A stretch of 64,000 nt of DNA from Nitrospirota bacterium (GCA_963818475.1 CAWFSF010000002.1:256001-320000), one strand, 5' to 3'; shown: positions 19,756-33,559, counted from the first letter of the stretch. The notes: generated from the sequence alone by a model not told the origin. Program-made: numbers and translations.

Positions 19756-20678
19756 ATGCCTGCAAAAAAGAAGAAAGCCGCCACCGAAGACATCAGCACC
19801 CGCCACTCAGAAGCTCAAGCTCGGCCTGCCCAAGGGCAGCCTGCAGGAATCGACCTTCAAGCTCTTCGGCAAGGCAGGATACCGCGTACAGGTCAGCTCA
19901 CGGAGCTACTATCCGACCATCGACGACCAGAACATCGACTGCACCCTCGTCCGCGCCCAGGAAATGGCGCGCTATGTCGATATCGGGATCTTCGACGTGG
20001 GGCTCACGGGCAAGGACTGGATCCTCGAACAGAACGCCGACGTCGTCGAGGTTGCCGAACTCCGCTACGCAAAGGGCGGCTTGAACCCCGTACGCTGGGT
20101 CGTGGCCGTGCCGGAAGACTCGAAGATCAAGTCCGTCAAGGACCTGAAGGGCAAGCGCATCGCCACGGAGCTCGTGGGCTACACCAAGCGCTATCTCAAA
20201 TCCAAGGGCGTCACTGCAGACATCGAGTTCTCCTGGGGCGCCACCGAGGTAAAGCCTCCCCGCCTGGCCGACGCCATCGTGGAACTCACCGAGACCGGCA
20301 GTTCGCTCCGCGCGAACAATCTCCGCATCGTCGAGGTCATGCTTGAGTCCACCACCCGGCTGATCGCGAACAAGAAGGCCTGGAACGATCCCTGGAAGCG
20401 GAAGAAGATCGAGAGCATGGCCATGCTGCTCCAGGGTGCGCTCGCTGCCGAGGAAAAGGTCGGCCTGAAGATGAACGCGCCCAAGGCGAACCTGAAGGAG
20501 ATCTGCGGCCTCCTCCCCTCGATGCACGCGCCCACGATCTCGCACCAGACCGACCCCGAGTGGGTGAGCCTGGAGGTCATCCTCGACGAAAAAGCTGGCC
20601 CGCGACCTGATCCCCCGGCTTAAGCGCCGCGGCGCTTCGGGGATCGTTGAGTATCCCTTGAACAAGGTCATATCGTAA
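19756..20678 (+). CDS. hisG: ATP phosphoribosyltransferase, long form (frameshifts near 19810 and 20597)
   Basis: [49 protein letters not shown]-terminal [12 protein letters not shown]. Confidence 0.95.
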
Positions 20679-22973: not shown

Positions 22974-24212
22974 ATGAAAAAATGGCTGGCCATAATGACG
23001 GCAGCCGGCTTGCTCCTGTATCCTTTCGCGGCCATTGCAGCAGACTACGGGTCGCAGCCCTCGCAAGAACAACAGGTCCCTCCTGTAGCCCAGACGCTGG
23101 TACGCGAAGGCGATTTCGCTATCAAGCTGGCGGCTGAACTCGATCTGGGCAAACCATCCGATGAAGCAACTGCAGAAGATATGCTGACGGCTGCGGGCGT
23201 GGTCCCCGCGAACGGATGGCTCTCGGACTACCCGATGACCCCCGAGATCATCGGCCAACTGAAAGATGCGGTATCCAAAGCAGCTGCAGAAGGCAAGCTG
23301 AAGATGAGCACTGATGAAGCGGTCAAGGGCCTTTATTACCTCACCGCGCAGATGAACCTTCCTACACCGGCCGGATCGGAAAGTCAGTCACAGGAGGGGA
23401 CTTCCGCGGCGCCTCCCGCGGTCGTGAACAACTACTACTACGATCAGGGACCTCCGGTCATAACCTATTACCCGCCGCCCTACGATTACTGGTATCTGTA
23501 CAACTGGGTGCCCTATCCGGTCTTCTGGTTCGGCTTCTGGTTCCCGGGATACTATATCTGCCATAATTTCACCACCGTGGTAGTGAGCCCGGTTTTCTTT
23601 GACCGGAGGGTGGTCACGAACCATGTGATAGACCCGGTGACCCGAAGAGTCGCGATCGTCGATCCCGTCGCGCGGACGAGCAACGGCGTCAGACCAACGA
23701 CCGTTCTTCGAACAGCCGACGGAAGGACATTCGGCAGCCTTTCCGAGATGAGAAGGTCGACGGGCAGCCTGGTTACGAAGCGTCCGGAATCACGGACCAT
23801 GACCAACAGCGCTTACCGGGGTGGAAGTTTTAGTACACGCGAGTCACAGCAAGGTGCTGAAAGCATCTACCGGAGAAGCATCGACCGGACCCATTCCGCA
23901 CCAGCGGGCAGGTTAAGTTCGCAGGATGGCCGGGTCGGATCATACAGCCCGGCAGGACGGAAGATGGGTGAAGGGCAGCGGTACACAGCGCCCGCTCCGT
24001 CGGGGAGATCGTACCACGGACCGACGACCCTGAGGGAACAACGGCAGGCAGCGCCTCGTATGCCGGAGCGATCATATAATAACTATAACTACGGCGGATC
24101 GTGGCAAGGTGGGGACAGATCGTATTCAGCCCCGCGAGTGCCGTCGAGGACCTTCACTGCTCCGGAGCTACGAGGCATGGGGCAGGAAAGAGGTGTAAGG
24201 CGCGGCTTCTAA
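22974..24212 (+). CDS. Exported hypothetical protein with aromatic/Pro-rich core and Arg/Ser/Gly-rich tail
   Basis: RBS AAGGAG, signal peptide, long ORF followed by a terminator. Confidence 0.75.
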   Translation: MKKWLAIMTAAGLLLYPFAAIAADYGSQPSQEQQVPPVAQTLVREGDFAIKLAAELDLGKPSDEATAEDMLTAAGVVPANGWLSDYPMTPEIIGQLKDAVSKAAAEGKLKMSTDEAVKGLYYLTAQMNLPTPAGSESQSQEGTSAAPPAVVNNYYYDQGPPVITYYPPPYDYWYLYNWVPYPVFWFGFWFPGYYICHNFTTVVVSPVFFDRRVVTNHVIDPVTRRVAIVDPVARTSNGVRPTTVLRTADGRTFGSLSEMRRSTGSLVTKRPESRTMTNSAYRGGSFSTRESQQGAESIYRRSIDRTHSAPAGRLSSQDGRVGSYSPAGRKMGEGQRYTAPAPSGRSYHGPTTLREQRQAAPRMPERSYNNYNYGGSWQGGDRSYSAPRVPSRTFTAPELRGMGQERGVRRGF

Positions 24213-24268
24213 AGCACACACAGCAGGTCAGATGTTTGCGTGTTCTAACGAAAACAAATGAGAAGCTA

Positions 24269-24295
24269 AAGGCGGCTACTTGGCTGCCTTTTTTT
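24269..24295 (+). terminator. Intrinsic terminator
   Basis: AAGGCGGCTACTTGGCTGCCTTTTTT. Confidence 0.8.
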
Positions 24296-24591: not shown

Positions 24592-26525
24592 TTGCCGCAC
24601 AAATTACCAGAACGGAGAAAATTCTTGAAAACATCTGTGAGGATCAGTATCAGTGCCGCCATTACCTTCTGCCTGACTCTATCCGGCGCGCCTGCGCTCG
24701 CGCAAACAGCCGAGGAAAAAAGTTTCCTCTCGTTGTATTTCAGCGAGGAAGAGCTCGTGGTCCAGTCCGCGACCAGGAGCCCGCAGGCGCTGTCGCGGGT
24801 CGCGGAGAACATGACCGTCGTGACCGCGGCAGAGATCGAGCGCATGAACGCGCATACGCTCGCGGATGTGCTGAACACGGTCCCGGGGGTGGAGGTGGCG
24901 ATGATCGCCGGGCCGGGGTCCGCGTCAAGTATCGGTATCCTTGGATCAACGCCTGCTCACGTAACTGTTATTCTCGATGGGGTGGTGATCAATGATCTTT
25001 GGGGACCGAGGGCGGAAATCGGCAATATCCCGGTGCAGAATATCGAGAAGATCGAGATCGTGAAGGGGCCGGCGTCATCAGCATGGGGTTCGGCGCTCGG
25101 CGGCGTGGTGAATGTCATTACCAAGACCGGCAGGGTAGTGGACCAGGGGGGCGTGCTGTCCGGCTCATACGGCAACGCTACATTCGGCGATTTTCGCGCT
25201 GAGGTGCGCGGCAAAGCAGGACAGGTTCGGCTATTACCTGAACGCTGGGCAGGCTCCAGTCCAGGGATTTTACACCCAGCATCGAGCTCTCGAACAATAC
25301 CAATGCCTACGCAAAGCTGTCCTACGACCTCACGGACAAGACGGACATCAGGTTTTCATTCGCATACATACAAAAGAAAGACGAAATCCCCTACCCCGAT
25401 GAAATCGACGTAAATCCAGGGCAAAATCTTCAATCGACCATTGCGCTTAACACCAGCCTGGCAAACAACATGGACCTGAATATTTCCGCATGGGCACTCA
25501 ACAATTATTTAAACTCCCGCTGGATTATCATCAGCACGGGAGAGTCTTCCGATCACAATGCCGCTCTCACAGGCCACGGCGCAAGCGTGCGGCTGACCTG
25601 GAAGACGGGACAGCAGACCATTGTGGTTGGGGGCGAGGCTGATGAAAAGGAAACTTCCGTTCCTCCTTTCGTGCTGAATGGGGTCATTCGGAAGCAGGCG
25701 ATCTATGTGAATGATACGATCGCTTTTGACAAGCTCACGGTGATCCCCGGGATCAGGTTCGAAGACACGAGCTCGACCGGTGGTTTTACCGCCCCGAGTC
25801 TCGGCATCACATACGCCCTGGGGAATGACACCATCTTCCGGACCTCTGTTGCACGCGGGTTTAACACCCCCGGAGCGGGCGCTTCCCTGGCGAGCGCTTC
25901 ATTTACCGATTCGGGTGGCACCACTACCTGGCTGCCGAACCCCGATTTGAAGATGGAGACTGTCTGGTCCTATCAGGCAGGCATCGAATCCGCGGCAAAG
26001 AAATACTTCTGGCTGAAGCTTTCGCTCTTCAGAAACGATATTAGAAACCTGGCGGTGGCGGTGACGCAAGAAACCGCACCCTTTACATTTACAACGCAGT
26101 ACGTTAACTTCGGCCGCAACCGTCAGGAGGGTGTGGTGCTGGAGACCAAAACCATGCCAATCTACCACACCTCTCTGCACGCGGCAGCCGAGGTCCTTAC
26201 GATAAAAGACTTGTATACCGGAGAAACCATCGCGGGCCAGCCGGTGCAGGTTTATGATGTCGGATTGAGCTACGATGACAAGGAGTCGTTCAATGCCGTG
26301 CTTCAGGGAAGACATATCAACTGGAACTTAAAAGATCCAAGCATTCAGACGCGCAAGACCATGATTGTGGACCTTACCGTGAACAAGAGGGTCCATCAGG
26401 TGAAGGCCACCAGTATTTCGATTTTTGCGAGCGGCCACAATCTGCTGAACACAAAGCAGATCTGGTCGACTTCCTGGCCGAACCCGGAACGCTGGTATGA
26501 GGCTGGGCTGAGGTATGATTTCTGA
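24592..26525 (+). CDS. TonB-dependent outer membrane receptor (frameshifts around 25215-25260)
   Basis: Signal peptide; plug domain (VVQSATR..NMTVVTAAEI..LADVLNTVPGV; IEKIEIVKGPASSAWGSALGGVVNVITK); ends WYEAGLRYDF. Confidence 0.93.
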
Positions 26526-26574
26526 TCGAGGCGGCAGCTTTGCCGCTATCTTGTTTTTCTGGGGGGTGACGAAC

Positions 26575-26673
26575 ATGCTGAAACGCATCACTGTTGTAAA
26601 AAGGGGCGTCGGGAAGTTCGGCGGCGCCACAATTGGTTGCTGTATCGCTGGATCAGGACAGAATAAAAAATAG
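26575..26673 (+). CDS. Putative RiPP precursor peptide, 32 aa, geopeptide-like
   Basis: RBS GGGGGTGA; MLKRITVVKRGVGKFGGATIGCCIAGSGQNKK*; lies directly upstream of a radical SAM/SPASM gene; below the ORF-track size cutoff. Confidence 0.85.
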   Translation: MLKRITVVKRGVGKFGGATIGCCIAGSGQNKK

Positions 26674-26689
26674 ACGTCCGCTTTGACCT

Positions 26690-26722
26690 GAAGGAGGGTG
26701 AAAACCCTCCTTCCCCTTTTTC
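26690..26722 (+). terminator. Hairpin between precursor and maturase genes
   Basis: GAAGGAGGGTGAAAACCCTCCTTC followed by CCCTTTTT. Confidence 0.7.
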
Positions 26723-26741
26723 AGGGAGCTATTCATAAACC

Positions 26742-28039
26742 ATGCCTTTCTCGACCTACTCCATACAGATCGATCATCCTGATGACCCTGATCAGGTGGT
26801 CCTTTTCTCGACCAGGACAGCTGCAACCGTCAACCTCCATCGCGACGTAATCAAGGACATCGAGGCAGGGCGCCTTTCTTCCGACGAGCGAGAAACACTC
26901 AGCGAACTCGGCATCGTCGTCCCGGATCTGAAGGACGAACGCGAGGAGATGCGTTCATACGTTGACGATATGAATGCTGCGAGCAAAACGCTTACGGTTA
27001 CCCTGGTCATGAGCCTGGACTGTAATCTTGCGTGCCCCTACTGTTTCGAAGGGACGCGCAAAGGGAAATATTATCTGTCTGAAGAAACTGCTAATGATTT
27101 TCTTCGCTTCATCGGCAACAGGCTTACGGAACTGGATGAACTTAATATCAGATTTTATGGCGGCGAACCTCTTCTGAGCTTCGACATGATCTACCGCATC
27201 GCCCGGGAGCTGTCAAAGTCCGCGTGCGAAGCACAAGGTAACATTCAGCTTCGGTTTCGTCACAAACGGAACGCTCTTGACTCGACCTGTTGTGGAGAAA
27301 CTTAAACCTCTCGGACTGAAGTCCGCATATGTCACTCTCGACGGACCACGGGAGATGCACGACATGTCGCGGCCCTTCAAAAACGGCAGCGGGTCGTTCA
27401 ATACGATCATCGGCAATCTCCGGAACGTCTCCGACCTGATCGAGCTCCATCTCGGCGGGAATTATTTGCAGGCGAATTACCGGGAGTTCCCGCGCATGCT
27501 CGACTTCCTGATTGCGCAACGGCTTGGGCCTGACGTGGTCTCCTTAATGAGCTTCAGCCCCATCATGAATGAGGATGCGAAGTTCTGCCCCGATTATCAC
27601 GACGGCTGCTCGAATGAAAACGAACCCTGGGTCGCGGAGGCCGGGCTTTACCTCAGGCGGGAAATACTTGCCCGCGGCTATCGCACCGATGAAGTGCTGC
27701 CAACAGTCTGCATGCTTGAACGTCACGATCATCTGGTCGTCAACTGGGACGGCGTGCCTGTACAAATGCCCGGGCTTGATCGGGCGAAAGGAATATGGCG
27801 CCGGCACGCTAAAATCGGGTTTGCTTGACTACACCGCGACTCACGACCTCGGAAACTGGAAGAACGAGGAATGTCTTAGCTGCAAGTATCTTCCGCTCTG
27901 CTTCGGCGGATGCAGACAAACGAAATTGATCTGCGAGGGCACGATGAAAGGCATTGAGTGCAAAAAAGAATTTTTCGACAAGACGCTTGAAGCGCTTGTG
28001 CTGCAGGACATAGAATACAGCAAGGCACCCGAAAGTTAA
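26742..28039 (+). CDS. Radical SAM/SPASM peptide maturase, geopeptide-maturase-like (frameshifts near 27225 and 27755)
   Basis: N-terminal RRE-like region, CNLACPYC, FYGGEPLL, TLDG..HD..R, SPASM motifs (C..KCPG..ECLSCKYLPLCFGGC..C). Confidence 0.9.
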
Positions 28040-28101
28040 TCGTATTTTCGACTGGTGGATTCTACCACTTTTTGGTATGATACCTCTGTGGTTATTCCCT
28101 C

Positions 28102-29023
28102 ATGAATATCGTTTCCCGGAACACGCTTCAACCTTCCCCTGAAAACGCTGCTTATCGCAGCCCCGCTCGTGGTGCGTCTGTTCGCTGCCCCGCTCCCAGC
28201 CCTTGCCTCTGACGTTCTTATTATAAAAGACGCCGACATAAAACTCTACCAGGAGGCCATCCAGGGGTTCCAAAAAACGTGCGACTGCAGCGTGCGCGAA
28301 ATGGATCTTTCGGACCTGGATGCGATCGAGACGGCTCTCAAAGCGAAGCCGGACGCTGTTGTTGCTTTGGGTACGCAGGCGCTCAGAAGAACCAGGACGA
28401 TCAGGAATGTTCCGCTGATCTATGCCATGGTGATGCCCTCCGAGGCCGCCGAAGCCACCGGAGGGAATGTGTCCGGCGTAAGCATGGACATTGCTCCGGC
28501 AGAATACCTCGCCGCCATGGCAGGCCTGTTCCCCGACGCAAAAAGGATCGGAGTACTCTTTAACCCGGACCAGACCGGTCCGTACGTCAAGGATGCTTCG
28601 CTTGCTGCGCGTAAAAATGATATCTCGCTGATCCTGAAGCCGGTCAGCAATGCGCGCAAGGCGCCTGCGCTTCTCAATGAACTGCGGGGAAAGATAGACG
28701 TCTTGTGGATGCTGCCGGACACGACGATCTTGAATTCCGAAATGGTCGATGCCATACTGCTGTTTTCCTTCCAGCATAACGTTCCGGTATTTTCCTTTTC
28801 AAAAAAATATGTGCAAATGGGCGCTGTGGCTGCACTAACCATCGACGCCCGGACTATAGGCAAACAGGCAGGTGAACTGGCCCGGAGCCTGCTCCAGAAT
28901 GGCAACGGTCCCCTGCGGGCCTATGCCACGAACCCCCGTCTGATCGTAAACACGAAAGTCGGCGCAAAATTAGGAGTACGGATCAATGGCGAACTTTTCC
29001 AAAATGCTGAAAAAGTGGAGTAA
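28102..29023 (+). CDS. ABC-type periplasmic substrate-binding protein, sensor-associated (probable 5' frameshift)
   Basis: KPDAVVALGTQA, GVSMDIAP, KRIGVLFNP, LWMLPDTT, KYVQMGAVAAL, IGKQAGELA. Confidence 0.85.
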
Positions 29024-29027
29024 CGGC

Positions 29028-30407
29028 ATGCATGTTTTCGGCAGAAACAGCCTGGGTTTCAGGCTGATCAGCGTATTCATTGCCATTATCGTGATCGTGA
29101 TCTTGTCGATTTCGGTTTTCTCCATCGCCCGATGGAGGAACAACGCGCTTGCGACGCTCAGAAGCAAGGGCGCGACCATGACCAGGCTCCTTTCTGTGAG
29201 CGCGCGGATCGGCATTTTTTCCGAGAACGTAGACCAGCTCAAAGAAGCTGCGGACAGCTATATCGCAGTACGGGATGTTCTTTTTATCGGCATCTACAAT
29301 GCCGACAGGAAGCCGCTGTACCTCTCCGATCCGGCTTTTCCCGGCAGCGACACCATTTCGGAAAGCGGAGCAAAACCTCGAAGGGAGCCGGCTGCGCAAA
29401 CTGAAGGCCTGACACAGGAATTCTCAAGGCCGGTAACGCTCACCCTGTTTTCGAATGAAGCAGCGTCGCTCTACCTCGGCGACGGCGATACGGGTTCGAA
29501 AGAGCAGGTGATAGGATACGTTAAGCTCGTGCTGGGCCAGGAATCCTTGCGCCATGAGATCAATAGGATCCTGGTGCAAAATGCGATCATCGCCCTTCTC
29601 TTCATCTGCCTGAGCATCGTGATCGTGTCCCTCTGGGTGAAGAAGATCACGAAACCTCTTGAAACGCTGACACGGGAAGTCAAGGCCCTGGGCAAGGGAA
29701 GCGATGTCCCGTACGTGCCGGTCCAGAGCATGGATGAGGTCGGCAGGCTCGCAACCGAGTTCAACTCCATGCTCGATGAACGAAAGATCGCGGAACAAAC
29801 TCGCAAAAATATCCTGAGAGACCTGCATGACGGCGTCGGCGGCATGATGACGAACATCGTCATCCTCTCGGAGATCAACCGGGCCAAGCCGCTGCCCGAG
29901 GAGATCGCCAAAGCATTCGCCACGATTTCCGCGCTGTCACGCGACGGTATTGCCGAGATCAGGAGCCTGATCTATAGTCTCGACCGGAACGATCTGAACT
30001 GGCCCTCGCTTATCGCGGAGATGAGAAGCCTGGGCTATAAGATGACTGAACCCCATGCGATCGTTTTCGAAATGACCTCGAAGGTGGAAGAAGGTGTCGC
30101 CGAGCCGGGAAGTTTACTTTGTATGCACCTTTTCAAGATCTATCGCGAGTCGCTCACCAACGCCATCAAACATGCTCAAGCAGCGAAGATCCGCGTGGAA
30201 ATGTCCGTCAGGAATGAGCGGATCCTGCTCGCTGTCCGTGACGACGGGCGGGGCTGCAATACCGCAGAACTGTCCGCTGAAGGCAGGGGCTTCGCCAATA
30301 TGAGATCGCGCGCTGCTGAGATCGGCGGTACCGTGACGATTAACGGCGGCAACGGCACCTGTGTTTCCGTCGACATACCGCTTCCGATAACGTCCGGGCC
30401 GCACTAG
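29028..30407 (+). CDS. HAMP-domain sensor histidine kinase (HisKA_3 type)
   Basis: Two transmembrane segments, HAMP (KPLETL..DEVGRLATEFN), RDLHDGVG, ESLTNAIKHA, DDGRG, GRGFANMRSRA. Confidence 0.92.
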   Translation: MHVFGRNSLGFRLISVFIAIIVIVILSISVFSIARWRNNALATLRSKGATMTRLLSVSARIGIFSENVDQLKEAADSYIAVRDVLFIGIYNADRKPLYLSDPAFPGSDTISESGAKPRREPAAQTEGLTQEFSRPVTLTLFSNEAASLYLGDGDTGSKEQVIGYVKLVLGQESLRHEINRILVQNAIIALLFICLSIVIVSLWVKKITKPLETLTREVKALGKGSDVPYVPVQSMDEVGRLATEFNSMLDERKIAEQTRKNILRDLHDGVGGMMTNIVILSEINRAKPLPEEIAKAFATISALSRDGIAEIRSLIYSLDRNDLNWPSLIAEMRSLGYKMTEPHAIVFEMTSKVEEGVAEPGSLLCMHLFKIYRESLTNAIKHAQAAKIRVEMSVRNERILLAVRDDGRGCNTAELSAEGRGFANMRSRAAEIGGTVTINGGNGTCVSVDIPLPITSGPH

Positions 30408-32359: not shown

Positions 32360-32466
32360 AGGCCAATAATACATCATTTTTATAAAGAAAAGAACAGCGT
32401 TCATGCATTTGGCTTCGCAATTTTCCCTTGTACATCGTTGCCGATTCTTGTATATTCCTCACTATT

Positions 32467-33559
32467 ATGAACACCCTCCCGCGCAGGAACAAGGATATAA
32501 TCAGGCTCGTCAAACCGCAAATACGCAAGCTCGCAGCCTATCACATCGATGAAACGCCCTGCCGCATCAAGCTCGACGCCATGGAGAACCCCTTCTCGTT
32601 GCCGGCTGCGGTGCAGCGCGAACTGTCGAAAGCCGTAAGCAGCGCATCGATCAACCGCTACCCCGATCCCTCGGCCAAAGAGCTGAAAAAGGCGATCGCC
32701 GGCCTCTGGGGCATGAAGCCCGCGAACATGATCCTCGGCAACGGTTCCGACGAACTGATCCAGGCGATCCTGCTCGCCTTCGGCGGGCCCACGCTCATCC
32801 CGGTGCCGACCTTTGCCATGTACGACATCACGTCGCGCGCGCTGTCGCAAAGGGTCGTGACCGTGCCGCTTGGACAAGAACTTCGATCTCGATGCGGACC
32901 TGCTGCTCAGAAAGGCAAAAGAGAGCAAAGCAAAGGTCATCTTCCTTGCCTGCCCGAACAATCCCACGGGAAACCGGTTCTCGGACAAGGCCGTGCGTAA
33001 AATACTGGACAGGGCCGATGCAGCCGTGGTCATCGACGAAGCCTACTTCAGCTTCTCCGGCAAGAGCTACTGAACGCCTTTTGGAGAAATACCCGAACAT
33101 GATCGTGCTGCGCACGCTGTCGAAGATCGGCTTTGCCGGCCTCCGCATCGGCGTGCTTGCCGCGTCGCCGGCGATCGTCGCGGAGCTGAACAAGATCCGG
33201 CTGCCTTACAACATCAACACCCTGTCCCAGGTCGGCCGCTGTTGCCGCGCTGAAGCACCGGGACATCATCGACCGCCAGATTTCCCTGTTGATTTCAGAG
33301 CGGGAAAACCTATATAATGCGCTTGGCGCAGATGACGGGCGTCACAGCCTATCCGTCCGAAACAAACTTCATCCTGTTCAGGACCGCCACCGACGCGACA
33401 GCGGTCTATGGGAAGCTGAAGAAGGCCGGCATCCTGATCAAGAATCTGAACAAGCCGGGGCCGCTCAGGAACTGTTTGCGCGTGACCATCGGGACACCGG
33501 AAGAGAACCGGGAATTCCTGAAAACGTTAAAAAGAATATTGGACACTGACACACCCTGA
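32467..33559 (+). CDS. hisC: Histidinol-phosphate aminotransferase (about four frameshifts)
   Basis: [55 protein letters not shown]. Confidence 0.94.

Follow-up and report, generated by a model that had tools for sequence, protein, structure and literature searches.

We analyzed a 64,000-nucleotide stretch of DNA (hereafter the window) from an uncultured Nitrospirota-like anaerobe whose genome assembly comprises seven contigs at 91% completeness. Open reading frame (ORF) and profile searches reveal five functions encoded on the plus strand between positions 24592 and 30407: a TonB-dependent receptor, a short peptide, a radical S-adenosylmethionine (SAM) enzyme, a periplasmic binding protein and a sensor histidine kinase. 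A sequence-only reading of the window had proposed that these co-oriented genes form a circuit in which a ribosomally synthesized and post-translationally modified peptide (RiPP), or its metal complex, is imported by the receptor, bound in the periplasm and sensed by the kinase. All five functions are present where that reading placed them, and the four-base gap it noted between binding protein and kinase genes is real (the stop codon of the former ends at 29023 and an ATG of the latter lies at 29028). An alternative in-frame ATG at 28986 would make the kinase gene overlap that of the binding protein. As had also been claimed, no permease, ATPase, protease, exporter, immunity gene or regulator was found adjoining the cassette. 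What the sequence-only reading overlooked, despite assigning the functions correctly, is that the receptor and radical SAM genes are each split as assembled.

The receptor gene (24592..26525, +) encodes a signal peptide, a Plug domain (PF07715, 76.3 bits) and then a 22-strand-type beta-barrel (PF00593, 112 bits), an architecture that places the protein, of 643 residues once two letters are removed, among TonB-dependent receptors. With this protein, the substrate-specific NCBIfam models all score far short of their cut-offs. The ORF that follows (26575..26673, +), which has a G-rich ribosome-binding stretch ahead of it, encodes a 32-residue candidate precursor peptide, MLKRITVVKRGVGKFGGATIGCCIAGSGQNKK, with the leader motif I-x-V-V-x-x-G and a Cys-Cys pair nine residues ahead of the C-terminus.

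The enzyme gene (26742..28039, +) encodes a radical SAM/SPASM maturase of the geopeptide type, with a CxxxCxxC motif and a C-terminal SPASM cysteine motif. As assembled it comprises three overlapping ORFs, for all of which TIGR04280 is by far the best maturase family (164.5, 204.5 and 120.9 bits at profile positions 1-164, 180-345 and 337-427). TIGR04280 is named “geopeptide radical SAM maturase” in NCBIfam/TIGRFAMs, where it is classed as a hypothetical equivalog with a curated cut-off of 400 bits; no single piece of the split gene reaches that value, and the plain sum is ∼490 bits. The radical SAM signature is present in the first piece (CNLACPYC; PF04055, 29.6 bits) and a SPASM domain in the third (TIGR04085, 34.5 bits against a cut-off of 27). 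We took as a precursor, by a working definition of our own, a short ORF directly 5′ of the maturase gene whose product combines a conserved leader with a Cys-Cys core. The window peptide is a geopeptide-like precursor by position and motif, and not by TIGR04229, the database model for geopeptide precursors. The window cassette resembles the geopeptide system defined by TIGR04229 and TIGR04280 in that its enzyme pieces fit TIGR04280 and a short Cys-Cys peptide is encoded directly upstream, but it differs in its peptide, and the family is known only as a database definition.

Both the enzyme and the peptide family are already named in NCBIfam, and we found no publication on either. Full-text searches returned no paper on “geopeptide” or TIGR04280; judged by title and abstract, none of the papers listed for radical SAM/SPASM enzymes together with a precursor peptide, a TonB-dependent receptor and a histidine kinase concerns this system; and a search combining RiPP, radical SAM, Geobacter and TonB found nothing. 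The maturase most likely cross-links the cysteines, a proposal drawn by analogy from the thioether-forming relatives named among the maturase family matches.

The binding protein gene (28139..29023, +) matches PF04392 with 89.4 bits (cut-off 25.9). Its score against the TrpX equivalog NF041285 is 71.8 bits, far below the cut-off of 390, and no ATP-binding cassette (ABC) permease or ATPase partner adjoins it or is conserved among the 80 related loci described below. The first canonical start codon is a GTG at 28169. A signal-peptide-like stretch (28103-28169) precedes the first ATG, GTG or TTG, and its translation would have to begin at 28139, from a CTG, or at 28103, from an ATG that lies in another frame. 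The 5′ end of this gene is accordingly uncertain, and a further one-base error, the fifth in the cassette, may lie there. The kinase gene (28986..30407, +) encodes a transmembrane segment, a periplasmic domain of ∼150 residues, a second transmembrane segment, and HAMP, HisKA_3 and HATPase_c domains (30.1, 37 and 47.9 bits), the composition of a NarL-class kinase. The periplasmic domain is weakly sCache_4-like, scoring 20 bits, which is under the cut-off of 22.1.

As assembled, the receptor gene spans three frames, with two listed ORFs and a short middle-frame stretch. The breaks in the receptor and maturase genes were checked by aligning contigs from four public sequencing runs to positions 24592-28100; the aligned pieces are 90-99% alike. 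Among the sequencing runs, X1 contains 0.33 of the words of the stretch and the others only small shares. One letter is missing from the related contigs at each of 25213, 25245/6, 27234 and 27760, and there are otherwise no insertions or deletions. Two runs support each of the first three missing letters and one run the fourth; a piece supporting the letter at 27234 is 151 bases long and has a single further difference. When the four letters are removed in silico, the receptor (643 residues) and the maturase (431 residues) become continuous. A gene for a class I/II aminotransferase (Aminotran_1_2; 32428-33317, +) is also split, its three ORFs in three frames matching consecutive stretches of the Pfam profile. 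Because the related contigs lack the four letters and a housekeeping aminotransferase is broken in the same manner, the four frameshifts are probably one-base assembly errors rather than decay, and the cassette is probably intact in the organism. Given such frequent one-base errors, apparent pseudogenes in this assembly cannot be trusted. The split aminotransferase gene sits in a histidine-biosynthesis-like neighborhood, and hisG lies at 19964-20623.

Sister cassettes and conservation of the gene set

The same genome carries two further paralogous cassettes, A and B (G000:C6:244491-251765 and G000:C6:853049-859568; loci L089 and L090 of our survey). Both have the order receptor, Cys-Cys peptide, enzyme, binding protein, kinase and a NarL-type regulator with REC and GerE domains. 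Their radical SAM genes are intact and score 584.6 and 562.5 bits against TIGR04280, over its cut-off. Breaks affect other genes, that for the receptor in cassette A and those for the binding protein and the kinase in cassette B. The three peptides have in common the leader M-K-x-R-I-x-V-[VL]-x-K-G-V, with its I-x-V-[VL]-x-x-G motif, and the Cys-Cys pair, and differ in their tails. Components of the window cassette are 31-58% identical to those of A or B. The nearest relatives of every component coincide (loci L024, L020 and L021 for the window; L009-L011 for A), and we therefore infer that the cassettes duplicated and diverged as units. In L024, the nearest relative of the window cassette, the kinase gene is likewise not followed by a regulator. 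The genome's only other PF04392 gene (C2:392757-393701) is distant and adjoins genes for different large sensor proteins.

Linkage of the five genes was surveyed in the genome_contigs collection with one genome per species. An enzyme relative is encoded at 177 or more loci, the best 80 of which were analyzed; their record titles name Nitrospirota, Geobacteraceae, Desulfobacterales and others. Label-free clustering of neighboring ORFs in these 80 loci returned just four recurrent protein clusters: the radical SAM enzyme in 79, the receptor in 74, the binding protein in 64 and the kinase or regulator in 62. The same gene set recurs at 80 loci, which places the grouping far beyond chance. The fifth-ranked cluster is a fragment of a major facilitator superfamily (MFS) transporter found in 12 of the 80 loci directly 3′ of the maturase gene (for example, L032:11215-11874); it is the only exporter candidate and is absent from the window.

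Many loci end at contig edges, and the linkage test was limited to the 32 with at least 6.5 kb of flank on both sides. Receptor, binding protein and kinase genes all lie within 7 kb of the enzyme gene in 32 of the 32, and the binding protein gene directly precedes the kinase gene in 31. The proposal of a circuit would have failed had the peptide and enzyme pair rarely co-occurred with the sensor genes, and this is not the case in any testable locus. Three arrangements keep the set together across two phyla: the genes are colinear in Nitrospirota loci; the kinase and binding protein genes diverge from those of receptor, peptide and enzyme in Desulfobacterales-type loci; and the partners are split to either side of the enzyme gene in Geobacter-type loci. 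In most related loci the receptor gene is immediately 5′ of the peptide gene.

The precursor is similarly widespread. A small Cys-Cys ORF lies 5′ of the enzyme gene in 68 of 78 testable loci, 58 of which also have the leader motif, and 7-14 residues follow the Cys-Cys pair in related precursors. Two variations on this theme were observed. The usual short leader gives way to a long A/T-K-K-K repeat, rich in lysine, in L019, L020, L021, L024, L027, L036, L037, L040-L042, L055 and L063, and tandem identical precursor genes stand 5′ of a single maturase gene in two loci (L058:9642 and 9835; L071:9358 and 9515).

To what extent receptor, binding protein and kinase occur apart from the enzyme was assessed in 401 sampled genomes of the window's phylum. 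The enzyme is patchily distributed, with matches above the cut-off in 43 of the 401 genomes and at E≤1e-60 in 54; at this second threshold it matches 22 of 63 genomes of the window's own family. The binding protein profile matches 175 of the 401 at E≤1e-30, and in one family the binding protein is present in 63 of 76 genomes and the enzyme in 0 of 76. The enzyme is also encoded in 37 of 41 genomes with binding proteins scoring at least 290 bits, a figure that is partly circular, the profile having been built from cassette copies. Twenty binding protein loci were sampled from genomes lacking an enzyme match (L091-L110). None contains a radical SAM match, and a TonB receptor is nearby in about half; one locus is cut by a contig end. 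The receptor of L101 closely resembles those of the cassettes (629 bits), and the locus has neither peptide nor enzyme. The dependence is one-way: the producer genes for peptide and enzyme imply the receiver genes. The receiver module is accordingly older and wider in distribution than the producer module.

The binding protein and its modeled contact with the kinase

A complex of the binding protein with the periplasmic domain of the kinase was modeled from our own alignments of 62 binding proteins and 45 kinase periplasmic domains. The interface score ipSAE is 0.76 (runs of 0.81, 0.76 and 0.75), compared with 0.01 for the best control. The runs agree on at least 96% of contacts, and the partner has a predicted local distance difference test value of at least 78. 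In calibration, 58 of 80 solved complexes attained this mark, as did 2 of 110 mismatched pairs, a guide that is only rough here since our own alignments were used. The modeled complex supports contact between the binding protein and the periplasmic domain of the kinase. It seems unlikely that the model reproduces a solved complex, because Protein Data Bank (PDB) sequence searches gave only free-standing relatives (3lkv, 3lft, 6hni and one-lobe proteins) and one weak match to a kinase domain, with no relative named as such a complex.

The modeled contacts coincide with the most conserved residues of both families. On the kinase side these form two motifs, R-x-G-V-F-A-E-N, whose Glu is present in 45 of 45 sequences, and E-E-x-L-Y-F, with Leu in 40, Tyr in 34 and Phe in 34 of the 45. 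The binding protein contributes Pro13, Tyr14, Gly55, Met74, Met93, Pro170, Phe197, Ser198, Lys200 and Asp213. The first kinase motif is conserved both in cassette-type kinases and in distant pairs from loci lacking the radical SAM gene, whereas the Leu-Tyr-Phe loop of the second is kept only in the former.

The best PDB sequence matches of the window binding protein are CD0873 (6HNI), VC_1101 (3LKV) and SP1069 (3LFT), with which it shares both Pfam family and fold. According to the passages of PMC6816091 on ligand binding, these relatives feed ABC importers and bind free amino acids: the pocket of CD0873 holds tyrosine by means of Val-235/Pro-236, Glu-263 and Tyr-279, and VC_1101 and SP1069 bind Phe and Trp likewise. 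The window protein, in contrast, has no transporter. We mapped the CD0873 pocket onto it by pairwise alignment, in which chain index + 21 reproduces the CD0873 residue names. The pocket residues align to positions 168-169, 198 and 214 of the window protein in complex-model numbering, and those equivalent to Glu-263 and Tyr-279 are Ser and Ala. The tightest modeled contacts are made by kinase residues Leu114, Tyr115 and Leu116 with binding protein positions 170, 197-198 and 214. By model and alignment together, the conserved Leu-Tyr-Phe loop of the kinase would sit in the pocket that in relatives receives an aromatic amino acid.

LuxP-LuxQ and TorT-TorS are binding-protein-dependent kinases, and in the window, too, a transporter-less binding protein gene adjoins that of a membrane kinase, with docking modeled on the periplasmic domain. 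The window system differs in its PF04392 binding protein, in its weakly sCache_4-like sensor fold and in having a TonB receptor in the set, and its model places a kinase loop in the ligand pocket region rather than on the outer faces of the lobes. YfiR of Pseudomonas aeruginosa acts through direct binding of the periplasmic domain of YfiN. According to the part of PMC4655355 that describes its structure, YfiR, a periplasmic regulator of the YfiBNR system, corresponds in fold to one lobe of 3LFT/3LKV; as is proposed for the window cassette, a periplasmic protein of this kind controls a membrane signaling enzyme bearing a HAMP domain. YfiR is in this respect a precedent for the fold in periplasmic signaling. 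YfiR differs in being a single-lobe DUF4154 protein with a diguanylate cyclase as its partner and with no peptide or TonB receptor.

Proposed import and sensing of a modified peptide, and alternative readings

Our best reading of the cassette, which we consider about evenly poised between right and wrong, joins a producer module to an uptake and sensing module. The producer half would consist of the short Cys-Cys precursor and the radical SAM/SPASM maturase, and the receiver half of the small, BtuB-sized TonB receptor, the transporter-less binding protein and the membrane kinase that it is modeled to contact. Once matured, the peptide, or else some small product or complex to which it gives rise, would get outside the cell, and the receptor would pump this product back through the outer membrane. 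As the presumed ligand of the binding protein, the product would then shift the state of the binding protein/kinase complex, and the kinase would signal, with a positive or negative effect on putative targets, through a NarL-type regulator of the type encoded beside the kinase in the sister cassettes and not in the window. The product could serve as a signal, or it could carry a metal or cofactor. That it serves quorum or kin sensing rather than acting as an antibiotic, as was proposed in the sequence-only reading, is a guess. Of the proposal that the peptide is imported, bound and sensed, the linkage is borne out by the 32 full-flank loci and the contact between binding protein and kinase is supported by the model, but the exclusivity of the arrangement does not hold, given the receiver pairs that occur without a radical SAM gene.

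These receiver pairs are the first of several observations that weigh against the import-and-sense circuit. A protein with the same sensor domain directly follows the binding protein in 20 of the 20 loci sampled from genomes without an enzyme match, which implies that the receiver module is not intrinsically a geopeptide sensor. The window peptide gives no match at E≤10 to TIGR04229 (22 positions, cut-off 30 bits); the peptide of cassette A scores 13.7 bits (E 0.042). The window peptide also lacks a signal peptide, and no conserved exporter or leader protease is found in the neighborhoods of the 80 loci, so that its release from the cell is left unexplained. No regulator with REC and GerE domains follows the kinase or was found anywhere on the window's contig. 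NarL-type regulators, which the sequence-only reading had suggested looking for, do follow the kinase in both sister cassettes. Residues across the modeled interface are conserved and do not covary with the peptide tails, and thus offer no independent support. Moreover, a kinase loop in the pocket would leave no obvious site for a peptide. Among the solved relatives treated in PMC6816091 and PMC10443332, only free Tyr, Phe and Trp are bound, and L-Trp, L-Tyr and L-Phe are the only ligands that Table 1 of PMC10443332 lists for PF04392 structures. Finally, autoinduction of the cassette through sigma-54 is not supported, perfect sites standing just 5′ of the peptide gene in only two loci (L018 and L025).

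The closest paralogue of the kinase core (46% identity) is a 956-residue multi-pass kinase (G000:C1:54735-58263) whose gene is followed by that of a NarL-type regulator. It is possible, as a lead only, that this regulator on contig C1 is a shared or cross-talking partner of the window kinase.

Among the alternatives, the one that survives best, although we still think it rather improbable, is that the product is a shared metal or cofactor carrier of the methanobactin kind, which receptor and binding protein recapture while the kinase tunes production to supply. Methanobactin operons encode a precursor, maturases of the MbnB/MbnC type, the TonB receptor MbnT, the binding protein MbnE and metal-responsive control. 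The window shares with them a RiPP precursor encoded beside its own TonB receptor and periplasmic binding protein; two adjacent cysteines could bind metal, and the receiver-only modules resemble receptors for foreign siderophores. However, the window maturase is a radical SAM/SPASM enzyme, its binding protein belongs to another family, it has no exporter, and a kinase replaces the sigma/anti-sigma pair. The absence of a conserved inner-membrane permease or ATPase also argues against a carrier, as does the tie between the binding protein and the kinase, which is genetic in 31 of the 32 loci and structural in the model. Fur-box-like sites 5′ of the receptor gene are not enriched over background in 58 regions, a weak test in that the consensus used is that of E. 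coli. Should the enzyme form thioethers, like the relatives named for it, no free thiols would be left to bind metal.

We think it unlikely, though only slightly more so, that receptor, binding protein and kinase detect an external ligand unrelated to the peptide (an aromatic amino acid, for example, or a different TonB substrate) and do no more than turn on a peptide whose action lies elsewhere, as an antimicrobial or as a product that stays inside the cell. The solved family members in PMC6816091 do bind Tyr, Phe or Trp. The wider spread of the binding protein family than of the enzyme, at either threshold, and the 20 pairs lacking a nearby radical SAM gene favor an unrelated ligand, and the lack of an exporter or immunity gene here means that there is no sign of the peptide returning to the cell. 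Nonetheless, all of the 32 full-flank loci with the producer genes also have the receiver genes, the receptor gene stands immediately ahead of the peptide gene in most loci, the pocket positions of the window protein are unlike those of the amino-acid binders, and high-scoring binding proteins usually accompany the enzyme, with the circularity noted above.

A more specific and equally doubtful version of the import-and-sense circuit is a peptide signaling channel of diderm anaerobes that spans three compartments. The kinase loop may act as a tethered pseudo-ligand that is displaced from the pocket by the TonB-gated Cys-Cys peptide, whose tail is often aromatic, thereby switching the kinase. 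The three cassettes of the genome would then be private channels, and the receiver-only modules eavesdroppers.

Still less probable, in our judgment, is that the binding protein acts on the kinase without need of a ligand, much as YfiR acts on YfiN, with its pocket permanently filled by the loop and the signal acting on the kinase or the receptor. The model places kinase residues 111-116 (E-E-x-L-Y-F) against binding protein positions 170, 198 and 214, of which the latter two align with Glu-263 and Tyr-279 of CD0873 and the first lies one past the equivalents of Val-235/Pro-236 (pocket residues as described in PMC6816091). The correspondence between the YfiR fold and one lobe of 3LFT/3LKV, as described in PMC4655355, and an interface that is conserved rather than covarying fit the same idea. 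Its basis is a model, however, and it leaves the tie to the TonB receptor and the peptide unexplained; the loop, furthermore, is not kept in the distant pairs without a radical SAM gene. Finally, two breaks in each of two genes inside 3.5 kb, a kinase without the following regulator seen in cassettes A and B, and an atypical peptide tail that fails TIGR04229 could mark the window copy as a decaying pseudogene cassette with four real frameshifts and a lost regulator, but this is very improbable because the inserted letters are absent from related contigs (including the 151-base piece that shows just one further difference), the window also has a housekeeping aminotransferase gene split across three frames, cassettes A and B are broken in different genes, and the intact nearest relative, L024, also lacks a regulator after its kinase.

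The import-and-sense circuit, if correct, would have a partial counterpart in PfeA/PfeS-PfeR of Pseudomonas aeruginosa, in which a TonB receptor imports ferric enterobactin that is sensed in the periplasm by a two-component kinase. Both would use TonB-gated entry to the periplasm followed by two-component sensing; the window differs in having a separate binding protein, a ribosomal peptide made by the cassette as its presumed ligand, and no link to iron as judged by the weak Fur-box test. Peptide signaling is well established in Gram-positive bacteria. To our knowledge, it has hardly been described in bacteria that possess an outer membrane; there, a peptide needs a gate to reach a membrane kinase. 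With at least 177 loci encoding an enzyme relative, the cassette is a concrete and widespread candidate for peptide signaling in diderm bacteria. Its parts are an enzyme that would modify a Cys-Cys motif, a TonB receptor of its own and a binding protein/kinase pair for which a specific interface is predicted. If the product instead carries a metal or cofactor, anaerobes that cycle iron and sulfur would have in it a peptide-derived public good of a new class. Some carriers can be cultured, as records of Citrifermentans bremense R1 and Geobacter argillaceus among the related loci (L077 and L083) show.

Regulatory outputs and flanking elements

Across lineages, the kinases retain the periplasmic domain and HAMP, and their outputs vary: HisKA_3 kinases occur with a NarL-type regulator, HisKA kinases with an NtrC-type sigma-54 activator, and hybrid kinases with receiver domains. 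A scan of the 80 loci (2.34 Mb, both strands) for −24/−12-type sigma-54 sites gave 78 sites. In 10 of the 13 loci with an NtrC-type regulator (L017, L023, L029, L031, L033, L041, L042, L043, L055 and L063), a sigma-54-like site lies just 3′ of the regulator gene and faces a gene of the LuxR family, such as L023:6030-6842, with Autoind_bind and GerE domains, or L029:15556-15960, with GerE only. This arrangement suggests a regulatory cascade leading out of the cassette. Footprinting of the region upstream of the receptor gene in cassette A and its relatives gave an alignment only between A and L011, in which one stretch resembles a promoter and no regulator site stands out. A TTGCAT repeat lies 5′ of the receptor gene in the window and is absent from L024 and from cassettes A and B.

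Terminator-like hairpins punctuate the cassette. The strongest (26690..26713, +), directly 3′ of the peptide gene, has ten pairs, six of them G-C, followed by CCCTTTTT. Comparable hairpins occur 3′ of the peptide genes in cassettes A and B, and this element is likely to be an attenuator between the precursor and enzyme genes. Another hairpin (26530..26547, +) lies immediately 3′ of the receptor stop codon, and a further one 3′ of the radical SAM gene. Ahead of the cassette, a hairpin at 24268..24291 (+), with a ten-pair stem and then a T run, lies 3′ of an unrelated gene and would mark the cassette as a separate transcription unit. That upstream gene (22974-24212, +) encodes a 412-residue protein with a signal peptide and a middle rich in Tyr, Pro and Trp; it has no Pfam or NCBIfam match and is not kept beside related cassettes. 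On the 3′ side, the cassette is flanked by a DUF255 gene on the minus strand.

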